A DNA stretch of 64,000 nucleotides from Patescibacteria group bacterium (GTDB taxonomy: Bacteria > Patescibacteriota > Minisyncoccia > Phycocordibacterales > UBA2100): NCBI GenBank assembly GCA_038064835.1, contig JBBTSD010000006.1:7669-71668 (forward strand), read 5' to 3'. Positions 3,405 to 12,446 of this stretch are shown piece after piece; the stretch's first letter is position 1; each line of letters opens with the position of its first letter. Both the position numbers and the translations under genes were made by a program. The notes beneath the pieces were generated by a model that was not told the origin of the DNA, did not search any database, and saw nothing but the letters and a program-made list of their open reading frames with translations.

Positions 3405-4220
3405 ATGGAGTTGGCCCCGCACGATATAATTGCGACAACCACCGCAGTGGGTGGTGAGGTTGCGCATACTGCACGCGAGGGGGGGATTCATGTTGCGCTA
3501 GCCGCTGAGCGGCTCGGCACTTTTATAGGGATCCCCATAACCAACACCCTGGTCACCAGCTGGGTGGTCATGGTGGTTCTTATTGGGCTCGCATTTTTTG
3601 TCCGTCGGTCTCTTTCAGTGCGGCCAGGAAATCTGCAACTTGTTTTTGAGGAACTAATTACTGCGGTACATACCTTCATCCGAGACACCCTTGAAAGTGA
3701 TTCACAGGCACGCAGATTCCTTCCACTTCTCCTTACGCTATTCTTGTTCATTTTTGTTTCGAATGCCCTCGAGTTTCTTCCAGGTATCGGTTCTTTAGGT
3801 TTTTATCGCGGAGAGGAATTCGTCCCGCTACTGCGCAGTGTCAACACTGATCTCAATGTGACGCTGGCACTGACGGTCATCGCTGTAGTGGTTATTGAAG
3901 TCTCTGGTGTCATGGCGCTTGGCTTTTTCAAATACACCAGCAAGTTTCTCAACTTCTCATCCCCGGTTAATTTTTTTGTAGGATTTGTCGAGCTGGTGAG
4001 TGAAGTTGCTCGGCTTGTTTCGTTTTCATTCCGTTTGTTTGGCAATATTTTTGCGGGTGAAGTCCTTATCGGAGTTGTTTCTTATTTTGTTCCCTATATC
4101 TTGCCTTCAGGCCTTATGGCATTCGAACTGTTTGTCGGATTTGTGCAGGCAGCAATATTTACACTTTTGACTTTGTTTTTTATAAAACTTGCAACAACCG
4201 ATGTAGAACACGCACATTAG
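3405..4220 (+). CDS. atpB: F0F1 ATP synthase subunit a
   Basis: Polytopic membrane protein with the conserved FRLFGNIFAGEVL motif (essential Arg region of subunit a). Confidence 0.85.
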   Translation: MELAPHDIIATTTAVGGEVAHTAREGGIHVALAAERLGTFIGIPITNTLVTSWVVMVVLIGLAFFVRRSLSVRPGNLQLVFEELITAVHTFIRDTLESDSQARRFLPLLLTLFLFIFVSNALEFLPGIGSLGFYRGEEFVPLLRSVNTDLNVTLALTVIAVVVIEVSGVMALGFFKYTSKFLNFSSPVNFFVGFVELVSEVARLVSFSFRLFGNIFAGEVLIGVVSYFVPYILPSGLMAFELFVGFVQAAIFTLLTLFFIKLATTDVEHAH

Positions 4221-4230
4221 TGAAAGGGAA

Positions 4231-4251
4231 AAGCCGGTCGAGGACCGGCTT
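4231..4251 (+). terminator. Hairpin immediately downstream of atpB; weak terminator candidate with no clean U-tract
   Basis: aagccggtc-gagg-accggctt stem-loop 10 nt after the atpB stop. Confidence 0.35.
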
Positions 4252-4753
4252 CACTAAGAGCTTTCTTTGAAGGATGCTTTTACTCGGTAAGCCCTGTGAC
4301 TGTGTGGGCGAGAGACATCTACTTTCTCTGGTTTTGGATGGTGCCGACATATGTCGGCTTTGTTATAGCCAGAAAGACGGGCTGTACATCCAGGAAAAGC
4401 ACAGTGCCGAACCGTAGTGTTGTGGCGAGGGCCACGGCCACTCATTTCACCAATCGAGAATACTTCCAGATAGATTCCTCGTTCCATGGTTGTCCTCTGT
4501 ATTGTTCTGTCGAAGACTGACAGTAATACAAAGTCTGCCAGAGGTCAATGGCTGTGGATGTAACTACTCACCCATTTCCAGTGGTTTACCGCGGATTCCC
4601 CGCATGCACGATGCGGCGGATCCCTGCGACGAAGTCGACTCCTTTGAGCGAAAGCGTTTGCATGATGGTCATATTGACTGCGTGAGTCGCAGCGCCATTG
4701 TCGCTTCATGGAGGGAACGGGGGACATTGTATTAAGCGTGCTACAATGGGCAG

Positions 4754-10792: not shown

Positions 10793-10818
10793 TCGCTTGT
10801 GGTTATAATGCAAACGCT

Positions 10819-12195
10819 ATGAACAAAGGAACTATTACACAAATTGTGGGACCCGTTGTTGATGTGCGTTTCGATGCGGGCGTTCCTGCCATTAAAAACG
10901 CACTTGAAGTTAAAATAAAAGACGGTGTACTTATTCTTGAAGTAGCTCAGCATTTGGGCTTTAACCGTGTGCGCTGTATCAGTATGGGTGAAACAGCTGG
11001 ACTCCCGCGCAATCTTGAGGTGCACGACACGGGCGCTCCTATCTCTGTCCCTGTAGGCGAGAAAGCGCTCGGACGCATGTTTAATGTGGTGGGTGCAGCC
11101 ATCGACGGCAAGCCCGATGTGGACAAATCCGCACCACGACTTCCCATTCACCGAGAGCCGCCAGAATTCACTCGGCAGGCCACGAAAGCTGAAGTATTCG
11201 AAACAGGCATCAAGGCAATCGACCTTATGACGCCGTTTATAAAAGGAGGCAAGGTGGGCCTTTTTGGTGGCGCTGGTGTGGGCAAAACAGTTCTGATTAC
11301 CGAGCTTATCCACAATGTGGCATCCGAACACGGTGGCTATTCAGTGTTTGCAGGCGTCGGAGAGCGCGTACGGGAAGGGAATGATCTCTACCACGAAATG
11401 GCAGAATCCGGCGTCCTCGACAAAACAGCATTGGTGTTTGGGCAGATGAATGAAGTACCGGGCGCACGCGCACGCGTGGCGCTGTCTGGCCTCACTATGG
11501 CTGAAGCTTTTCGCGATGAAGGAGGCAAGGATGTATTGTTTTTTATGGACAATGTGTTTCGCTTTGTCCAAGCTGGTTCAGAAGTATCGTCGCTGCTTGG
11601 GCGTGTGCCTTCTGCCGTGGGTTACCAGCCAACGCTTGCCGAAGAAATGGGACTTCTCCAAGAGCGCATCACTTCTACTACAGCAGGCTCGATTACTTCA
11701 GTGCAGGCGGTATATGTACCCGCCGATGACCTTACCGACCCAGCCCCTGCAACGACTTTCTCCCACCTCGATTCGACGGTGGTTCTTAGTCGCCAGCTCG
11801 CCTCACTCGGCATTTATCCCGCGATTGATCCGCTTGAATCAGGATCAACCGCGCTTGCTCCAGAAATCGTCGGGGAAGAGCACTATCGTGTCGCGAATGA
11901 AACAAAACGCGTGCTTCAGCGATACAAAGATTTGCAAGACATCATTGCTATTCTCGGCATTGAAGAGCTTTCTGACGACGACAAGAAGCTTGTCTACCGT
12001 GCACGAAAAGTACAAAAATTTCTTTCGCAGGCATTCTTCGTCGGCGAAGTATTTACTGGGCGCAAAGGGCAGTATGTGCCGCTCGCAGAAACAATTCGCG
12101 CTTTCGGCGAGATTCTAGACGGCAAACACGATGATCGCGACGAACAGGCATTCTACATGAAGGGCACTATAGACGATGTAATAAGCGGATCTTAG
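10819..12195 (+). CDS. atpD: F0F1 ATP synthase subunit beta
   Basis: [18 protein letters not shown] matches the canonical beta N-terminus; Walker [11 protein letters not shown] and the DELSDDDK motif are present. The ORF-track start at 10768 (GTG) would add 17 non-conserved residues, so the ATG at 10819 is preferred. Confidence 0.9.
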
Positions 12196-12197
12196 CT

Positions 12198-12446
12198 ATG
12201 AGCGCACAGACATTTCATCTCACTGTTGCTTCGGTGGGCGAGGCTGTATTCAACGATGATGCGATATCAGTGACACTCCCCGGAACAGAAGGTGTACTTA
12301 CTATACTCGCTCATCATGAGCCATTTGTGGCGGCCCTGAGAGATGGAAGTGCGCGCATTGTACAGGCAGACGGGGTGCACAAGGATATTGCTGTACATGG
12401 TGGAATTGTCGAGGTGTCAGATAACAAAGTTGCTATCTTGCTGTAA
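12198..12446 (+). CDS. atpC: F0F1 ATP synthase subunit epsilon, short 82-aa form (beta-sandwich domain only)
   Basis: Immediately follows atpD. The sequence ...LTVASVGEAVFNDDAISVTLPGTEGVLTILAHHEPFVAALRDG fits the epsilon N-terminal domain. The C-terminal helical hairpin is absent. Confidence 0.7.
   Translation: MSAQTFHLTVASVGEAVFNDDAISVTLPGTEGVLTILAHHEPFVAALRDGSARIVQADGVHKDIAVHGGIVEVSDNKVAILL

Follow-up and report, generated by a model that had tools for sequence, protein, structure and literature searches.

Does an extra gene wedged between atpA and atpG in a Patescibacteria F1Fo ATP synthase operon encode a new part of the enzyme, or is it a passenger in a busy position? The question was raised by a 64-kb window (64,000 nucleotides (nt), the whole stretch of DNA that was analysed, whose coordinates are used throughout unless the locus of a relative is named) from a Patescibacteria metagenome-assembled genome, obtained from groundwater of well H51 in the Hainich aquifer. 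An open reading frame (ORF) of 116 amino acids (aa), here ORF116, lies in this window between the genes for the alpha and gamma subunits, and the original prediction put its product forward as a candidate novel subunit or regulator of ATP synthase. We give an even chance to another reading, that ORF116 is accessory cargo, carried in an operon slot with high turnover and coupled translation, and belongs neither to the core of the enzyme nor to its conserved parts. ORF116 would be one occupant of a fast-turnover atpA-atpG slot, which in relatives holds unrelatable helical proteins, a toxin, a nucleotide hydrolase or nothing. The closest genomes by gamma-subunit similarity were Candidatus Kaiserbacteria and other Paceibacteria, and the host appears to be a Kaiserbacteria-like Patescibacterium. 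A literature search found nothing on extra genes within the atp operons of the Candidate Phyla Radiation (CPR).

Coding potential and predicted structure of ORF116

Gene identities were assigned with Pfam and NCBIfam models. The three genes at the centre of the question are:

7845..9407, forward strand: atpA (alpha subunit), 520 aa; TIGR00962, 730 bits
9410..9760, forward strand: ORF116, small acidic protein, group A of the slot proteins; codon signal, homologue in relative L173, AlphaFold2 (AF2) model
9764..10681, forward strand: atpG (gamma subunit), 305 aa; PF00231, E (expect value)=3.6e-82

ORF116 begins 2 nt past the atpA stop codon and ends 3 nt short of the atpG ATG, exactly the spacing of 2-3 bp first described. 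Coding potential was scored in bits per codon with a codon model trained on the long ORFs of the window. ORF116 scored +0.218 in its own frame and at most 0.005 in the other five; atpH and atpG scored 0.188 and 0.269. A second Hainich contig (L002) differed from window positions 8238-10681 by 3 substitutions in 2,444 nt, and its ORF116 protein was identical. The gene was called by NCBI (as hypothetical protein AAB421_02965, accession MEK7628353.1), MGnify and other gene callers, and very probably is a real protein-coding gene.

The contrary view treats ORF116 as an open frame that arose by chance in a spacer and yields no protein; it is highly improbable. It would agree with the lack of a database-wide homologue, of a Shine-Dalgarno sequence and of a promoter of its own. 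Against it stand the exact filling of the gap by 116 codons with junctions of 2-3 nt, the frame-specific and native coding signal, the homologous ORF in the L173 slot, the agreement of the gene callers and the purifying selection on comparable slot ORFs of relatives.

AF2, run with an alignment of six sequences, placed helices at residues 13-36, 41-71 and 76-108 and left both ends disordered (pLDDT 75.7, pTM 0.63), in keeping with the all-alpha nature first proposed. The product is predicted to be a small cytoplasmic protein folded as a three-helix bundle. Foldseek and a profile search of PDB returned only generic or designed three-helix bundles. No match to ORF116 was found in Pfam at E<=1, in NCBIfam at E<=0.01, in PADLOC or in PHROGs. 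Searches with tblastn of 80 related genomes gave zero matches. A HMMER scan of 1.84e9 representatives and a word-indexed search of 5.8e9 proteins had ORF116 itself as the sole match, and a profile made from a five-member alignment returned only its input lineages from the 5.8-billion-protein database.

Contents of the atpA-atpG slot in relatives

The atpA-atpG junctions of relatives were reached through homologues of gamma, and their loci were labelled with numbers of the type L001. The slot contained the following, with the identity of gamma to that of the window given for the nearer lineages:

L173 (gamma 74%): 112-aa ORF
L174 and L089 (gamma 73-74%): 102-aa ORF
L087 (gamma 73%): 95-aa ORF
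L178 (gamma 72%): 103-aa ORF
L092 (gamma 72%): 91-aa ORF
L175, L176 and L179 (gamma 67%): 131-aa ORF
L094, L095 and L015 (gamma 58-63%): ORFs of 123, 124 and 116 aa
L091 (gamma 71%): empty, 2 nt between atpA and atpG
L177 (gamma 74%): PemK/MazF toxin gene immediately 5' of atpG
L033: NUDIX hydrolase (L033:1263-1670)
L009: YfbR-like HD 5'-deoxynucleotidase (L009:7206-7985)
L105: DUF84 NTPase (L105:1765-2304) and PemK (L105:2307-2729)
L029, L119 and L120: small membrane ORFs

Most other Paceibacteria had an atpA-atpG gap of <100 nt, and their slot was usually empty. The small slot ORFs (91-131 aa) were mostly acidic (isoelectric point 4.5-6.6) and rich in helix-forming residues. Irrespective of the occupant the junctions were tight, from -8 to +6 nt after atpA (+28 in one lineage) and from -14 to +7 nt before atpG.

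Synteny across relatives had been named at the outset as a way to check the proposal, and in this comparison ORF116 was mostly absent or unrelatable, which speaks largely against it. ORF116 did not behave as a conserved subunit: it was absent from L091 and most Paceibacteria and recognisable in L173 alone. What counts against a new subunit or regulator is this single homologous occupant, the empty slot of L091 and the PemK gene of L177; the retention of a helical protein in many lineages and the purifying selection described below keep part of the idea alive.

Three further observations concern other occupants. The PemK gene of L177 (L177:159-563) is preceded by a short ORF, not by atpA, that may encode an antitoxin; the contig is short. 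Genes for house-cleaning enzymes (NUDIX, Ham1/ITPase, DUF84 NTPase and YfbR-like HD) recur at atpA-atpG or atpG-atpD in related Paceibacteria (further loci L014:2024-2434 and L007:2633-3232), and may link ATP synthase with nucleotide-pool sanitation in nucleotide salvagers. An extra gene at atpA-atpG is not limited to the CPR, since many Verrucomicrobia carry an ORF of 185-215 aa there (L051 (7441-7998), L058, L077, L130, L147, L148, L151, L169, L171 and L172). The ORFs of L051, L058 and L077 cluster, and an ORF6N domain (PF10543, E=1e-31) was identified in that of L051.

Relationships among the slot proteins

ORF116 matched the slot protein of L173 in BLASTP (E=7e-10, 25% identity over 104 aa) and in reciprocal phmmer searches (E about 3e-6), and the two have the co-linear motifs NVTPxxL, [HY]PH and EERxxIPxN[KR]L[HN] in common. 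They are homologous, and form the only clear homologue pair that involves ORF116. The slot proteins of L174 and L089 were related (E about 1e-32); the matches between L094 and L095 (7e-4) and between L087 and L178 (8e-3) were weak. Groups A and E aligned over their full length in hhalign (E=1e-4, probability 29%), and all other pairs of groups were at noise level. Judged by these comparisons the slot proteins seem to fall into at least three to five mutually unrelatable groups.

Two apparent likenesses were set aside. The 116-aa slot ORF of L015 had looked homologous by eye (equal length, MSE at the start, NKLM at the end) and gave a pairwise E of 1.6; it gains modest support as a member of group E. 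The C-terminal K-L-[HNM] tails that these proteins share were rejected as a sign of protein homology. The last codons ahead of atpG fit a loose YTNCANTAA pattern even where atpA abuts it (L091), so that the tail may partly reflect the context of the atpG start.

Identities of the slot proteins were set against those of the flanking genes:

L174 and L089: atpA 88%, atpG 79%, slot 57%
window and L173: atpA 87%, atpG 75%, slot 27%
L173 and L087: atpA 90%, atpG 84%, slot none recognisable

These rates do not fit simple vertical divergence. The slot groups interleave on the gamma tree, this part of which is nearly star-like. For the slot gene of L174 and L089, the only two lineages near enough to each other for this measurement, the proportion of nonsynonymous differences (pN) was 0.30 and that of synonymous differences (pS) 0.86, and for atpG the values were 0.15 and 0.67. 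Because pN is far below pS, the L174/L089 slot protein is under purifying selection and not in neutral drift. The simplest reading is that the slot holds real genes with frequent replacement or exchange, possibly over an old A/E lineage.

The same values bear on a further explanation, in which the ORF is kept mainly as a translational relay that hands ribosomes on to gamma and its protein product is of little importance. Lacking Shine-Dalgarno sites, the genome would need any sequence in the slot to be an open frame that stops beside the atpG start. The atp genes have no Shine-Dalgarno sequences, both junctions are tight in all lineages, the slot accepts unrelated ORFs and overall protein conservation is very low, all of which a relay would allow. 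We consider it quite unlikely, however: the group B protein of L174/L089 is constrained, the motifs of ORF116 and L173 are co-linear over the whole length, and atpA abutting atpG works in many lineages, so that loss of the ORF is possible.

Relation of ORF116 to the enzyme

Two subunits of the operon are short:

7455..7835, forward strand: atpH (delta subunit), 126 aa; 4-nt overlap with atpF; OSCP C-terminus, weak, E=3e-4
12198..12446, forward strand: atpC (epsilon subunit), 82 aa, N-terminal beta-sandwich alone; PF02823, E=3.5e-20

Both lengths are as first reported. Residues 3-81 of epsilon align with residues 2-80 of E. coli epsilon, and since the alignment ends there and the protein at residue 82, the inhibitory C-terminal helical hairpin is absent, as had been claimed. 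Delta scored 21.3 bits against a family cutoff of 22.3 bits; its position and sequence are conserved in relatives, and its residues 32-119 aligned weakly with residues 68-149 of a solved delta of 157 aa (full-sequence E=0.14). In all Patescibacteria loci measured epsilon was 81-90 aa long, whereas the Verrucomicrobia outgroup had 136-142 aa, and the room for delta was equally small in most related Patescibacteria loci. Short delta and epsilon subunits do not single out this locus, because they are found across the clade regardless of the state of the slot, and no correlation was seen between minimal delta and epsilon and an extra gene in the slot.

Stand-alone inhibitors of F1 include mitochondrial IF1, alphaproteobacterial zeta and cyanobacterial AtpTheta, all small, soluble and largely helical. 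As far as is known, their genes do not usually lie between atpA and atpG. ORF116 is likewise small and helical, and a comparable role would fit the missing C-terminal domain of epsilon; unlike them it has no Pfam match and no conserved inhibitory segment, and it is not conserved even between lineages whose alpha, beta and gamma are >80% identical. The small acidic helical slot proteins could nevertheless be one fast-evolving family of non-core F1 partners (regulator, inhibitor or assembly helper) produced alongside alpha and gamma, IF1/zeta-like in kind and unrelated in sequence, an explanation that we hold possible and on balance doubt. The position and the tight junctions are kept in most lineages of the subclade, the proteins resemble one another in length, in acidity and in being helical, purifying selection acts on one pair, groups A and E align over their full length with the hhalign E of 1e-4, and the whole clade has epsilon without its inhibitory domain. 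Yet the presumed partners are 81-92% identical between lineages while the slot proteins cannot be related. L091 and most Paceibacteria, with equally minimal delta and epsilon, have nothing in the slot, and elsewhere it is filled by a toxin or nucleotide hydrolases. ORF116 itself resembles no synthase subunit and no Pfam or NCBIfam family, and its three-helix fold is generic. An interface motif would be expected because the docking surfaces are 81-92% identical, and none is evident beyond the termini. The more specific proposal of a single fast-evolving F1-binding family that replaces the C-terminal domain of epsilon, a CPR counterpart of IF1/zeta that sequence searches have missed, is unlikely.

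Other origins for ORF116 were tried and rejected. As the epsilon C-terminal domain supplied in trans, as the N-terminal part of delta, or as a derivative of b, of gamma or of the alpha C-terminal domain, it reached an hhalign probability of at most 1.2% (slot-family alignment A3). Pfam holds the accessory and regulatory ATP-synthase families AtpI, zeta/DUF1476, IF1, Atp11 and Atp12, and ORF116 matched none of the known accessory families at E<=1. A MazG-like all-alpha nucleoside triphosphate pyrophosphatase, suggested by the motif LKEEYGEL and by the hydrolases of relatives, found no Pfam match at E<=1, and its PDB and Foldseek neighbours were generic bundles. A type II toxin-antitoxin module was discarded as well, the neighbours of ORF116 being atpA and atpG and no match having been found in PADLOC or Pfam. 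Neither ORF116 nor the second orphan gene of the operon, ORF610 (described below), had significant matches in PADLOC or PHROGs that would point to a defence or phage origin. Weak PADLOC and PHROGs matches of the relatives' slot proteins sit on coiled-coil regions and look like noise.

In flagellar type III export, the gene for the FliI ATPase is immediately followed by that for FliJ, a small helical coiled-coil protein of poor conservation. ORF116 is similar in being a small, poorly conserved helical protein just 3' of a gene for an alpha/beta-family ATPase; unlike the FliJ case, a normal gamma is present, and the ORF116 model is a three-helix bundle and not a two-helix hairpin. A FliJ match was seen in one relative only, L094, at noise level (E=0.013).

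The atpA-atpG junction as an operon slot

ORF116 would share the transcript of atpA and atpG, and its translation would depend on termination-reinitiation coupling (from the atpA stop over 2 nt to its own ATG, and from its stop over 3 nt to the atpG ATG). Both steps are proposed because ORF116 has neither a promoter-like box nor a Shine-Dalgarno sequence of its own. It would in this way borrow the expression of a strongly expressed operon, and the role of such cargo may be conflict-related or lineage-specific. Variable slots between conserved genes are familiar from phage morons, integration hotspots and toxin-antitoxin insertions. The atpA-atpG slot resembles them in its conserved flanks, in its unrelated occupants, PemK/MazF among them, and in that the occupants do not follow the phylogeny of the flanking genes; it differs in lying inside an essential operon, in its junctions of 1-7 nt and in having no recognisable mobile-element features.

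Several observations weigh against the cargo interpretation. Most lineages of the immediate subclade retain an acidic helical slot protein of 91-131 aa, which is more uniform than random cargo predicts, and the L174/L089 protein is under purifying selection (pN 0.30, pS 0.86). An ancient relationship between groups A and E is possible and would imply long retention at the slot. Neither mobile-element signatures nor flanking repeats were found to account for the turnover, and a protein with a role on F1 would be equally well served by stoichiometric coupling to the synthesis of alpha and gamma.

As an operon with two orphan genes the locus has annotation value and holds no surprise. Of wider interest is that in one Kaiserbacteria subclade the atpA-atpG and atpG-atpD junctions, and to a lesser degree atpB-atpE and atpD-atpC, act as exchangeable gene slots, which are filled by helical orphans, small membrane proteins, toxins of the MazF type and, time and again, the house-cleaning enzymes NUDIX, Ham1, DUF84 and YfbR. 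Slot proteins that bind F1 would show how the enzyme is regulated when the epsilon brake is missing, in organisms thought to rely on hosts for their energy. Slot proteins that do not would show how new genes can be expressed in leaderless genomes without Shine-Dalgarno sequences, through insertion into strong operons.

Architecture and expression signals of the atp locus

The gene order is atpB, ORF610, atpE-F-H-A, ORF116, atpG, atpD-C, with 8/8 F1Fo genes present. The remaining core genes are:

3405..4220, forward strand: atpB (Fo subunit a), 271 aa; PF00119, E=1.2e-40
6772..6999, forward strand: atpE (Fo subunit c), 75 aa; PF00137, E=2.9e-17
7009..7458, forward strand: atpF (subunit b), 149 aa from ATG 7009, the gene-caller start; PF00430, E=8.9e-15
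10819..12195, forward strand: atpD (beta subunit), 458 aa, gene-caller start; TIGR01039, 771.7 bits

An alternative start of atpF at TTG 7003 would give 151 aa. For atpD the earlier ORF coordinates had begun at GTG 10768; the gene callers choose ATG 10819, which is most likely the true start. With these assignments, a check of the ORFs and the Pfam and NCBIfam matches confirmed the described order, with atpB detached from atpE, and the positions of the ORFs. All of a, c, b, delta, alpha, gamma, beta and epsilon match the family models of an F-type ATP synthase operon. The locus is an ordinary minimal CPR F1Fo operon with two embedded lineage-specific orphan genes. The absence of atpI also held next to atpB, where the 5' gene encodes a PCC-domain protein.

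An N-ATPase or alternate F1Fo was rejected on two grounds. The alt_F1F0 models scored far under their cutoffs and below the canonical models (alpha 585 vs 750.5; beta 588 vs 752), and the order is canonical and not atpDCQRBEFAG. Compared with the E. coli type (atpIBEFHAGDC), the relative order B-E-F-H-A-G-D-C and the family matches are the same. The window differs in that atpI is missing, atpB and atpE are split by 2.5 kb that hold ORF610, atpA and atpG enclose an extra gene, delta has 126 aa and epsilon 82 aa, and there are probably several leaderless transcription units. Synthases with short epsilon are known (NCBIfam PRK13449, a model of 88 positions), and there as here epsilon is the beta-sandwich domain alone; unlike in those, the short epsilon is a trait of the whole Patescibacteria clade.

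The gaps between genes, in nt, were 533 (atpB-ORF610), 185 (ORF610-atpE), 9 (atpE-atpF), -4 (atpF-atpH), 9 (atpH-atpA), 2 (atpA-ORF116), 3 (ORF116-atpG), 137 (atpG-atpD) and 2 (atpD-atpC). The signals found in the spacers are:

3393..3398, forward strand: TATACT, a -10-like box 6 nt before the atpB ATG, leaderless-type signature
4231..4251, no strand: hairpin right 3' of atpB, 9-bp arms and 3-nt loop
4343..4358, forward strand: GC-rich palindrome then a T-rich tail, terminator-like
4742..4747, forward strand: TACAAT, a -10-like box 6 nt before the ORF610 ATG
10761..10792, no strand: inverted repeat in the atpG-atpD spacer, perfect 14-nt arms and 4-nt loop
10781..10809, forward strand: promoter-like TTCACT-17-TATAAT (10/12 matches), ending 9 nt before the atpD ATG

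The hairpin after atpB and the promoter-like box of the 610-aa gene had both been noticed before and were found again. The 14-bp palindrome reported with a TATAAT box has perfect 14-nt arms and the box is present (10804-10809); the element is an inverted repeat with a 4-nt loop and not a simple palindrome.

A TAnnnT box that ends exactly 6 nt before the start codon was found at 16/65 gene starts in the window, where about 1 is expected by chance. The boxes mostly read TATACT, TACAAT or TAGAAT. They are present at atpB, ORF610 and ORF523 (a large gene 3' of atpC), with a further example at 12467-12472; other boxed genes start at 2935, 30222, 40522, 43156(-), 46367(-), 53191(-) and 59594(-). The box of atpD stands at a spacing of 9 nt, and ORF116 and atpG have none. 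A Shine-Dalgarno sequence was sought at the atp genes of the window and found at none. The window looks like one with widespread leaderless transcription, a subject on which nothing was found in the literature for Patescibacteria. The gaps and the boxes suggest separate units for atpB, for ORF610 and for atpD-atpC, plus a unit from atpE to atpG. No convincing promoter box was found for the atpE-atpG unit. Rfam gave zero matches across the whole window, so none in the spacers of 533, 185 and 137 bp.

ORF610 and the atpB-atpE spacer

Two ORFs, one of them doubtful, lie between atpB and atpE:

4754..6586, forward strand: ORF610 (MEK7628348.1), 610-aa protein with a lipoprotein-like N-terminus, a helical stretch and an alpha/beta domain at the C-terminus
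4254..4487, reverse strand: doubtful 77-aa Cys-rich ORF in the atpB-ORF610 spacer; motif shared with a gene of L087

The N-terminus of ORF610 reads MKEGRSNPKLAKALAVALGAVSAAG followed by C, which is lipobox-like (…AVSAAG, then C), and the product may be a lipoprotein. No family for it was found in Pfam, NCBIfam, PADLOC or PHROGs, and no match among PDB sequences. The description of this gene as foreign is unsupported, because its codon signature (+0.200 bits/codon) and G+C equal those of its neighbours and are native. ORF610 was not present in any related locus examined. In relatives atpE follows atpB after ~80-370 nt, except in L087, where a small gene on the minus strand intervenes, and in L175, where the gap is 965 nt.

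A single-sequence AF2 model of ORF610 was poor (pLDDT 42.8); in it the N-terminal part is helical and residues 371-522 form a beta/alpha domain. Foldseek with this low-confidence model gave SAVED-CHAT as the best match (E=6.5e-3), followed by many caspases (E about 0.07-0.4). AHG follows the strand at 432-436 and HAC the strand at 492-495, as the His/Cys dyad of a caspase-type protein would. The C-terminal domain (residues ~371-522) may be caspase/CHAT-like (clan CD), which we regard as a lead and not a result.

The non-coding stretch of 530 bp reported after atpB exists as a spacer of 533 bp, and it holds the minus-strand 77-aa ORF. This ORF is similar to a called 83-aa minus-strand gene at the same atpB-atpE position in L087 (L087:5613-5864 (-); pairwise E=2e-5), with the common motif CxxxG(C)xxRLxxYNxxxxCxxHPxP. 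It was rejected as a firm gene and left doubtful, since it has no in-frame codon signal and was not called by gene callers, PGAP included.

Neighbouring variable regions

The atpG-atpD spacer, 137 nt of non-coding DNA in the window, is a variable slot in relatives (L087:9946-10275, L091:1539-2501, L173:2332-3001 and L092:1896-2246). Membrane proteins of 102 aa in L173 and 111 aa in L091 are related there (E about 1e-16), as are the 99-aa and 116-aa members of a coiled-coil family in L091 and L092 (E about 1e-40). In L175 an apparent tandem duplication (L175:8001-11773) contains atpG, a 95-aa membrane ORF, a 263-aa protein, an identical 95-aa ORF and atpD. The 263-aa protein matches gamma (PF00231) and the alpha/beta N-terminal domain (PF02874) and may be a gamma/beta chimera; the arrangement reflects either a genuine duplication or an error of assembly.

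The region 3' of atpC holds a large ORF and then an RNHCP-domain gene, at 12479-14050 (ORF523) and 14053-14334 in the window. Between ORF523 and the large ORFs that follow atpC in other lineages no sequence similarity was detectable, and the position is kept. A large ORF followed by an RNHCP-domain gene is found in L087:11900-14098 and L175:12034-14300 (523-649 aa with that of the window), and L091 has an ORF of 667 aa in the same place after atpC (L091:4220-6223).

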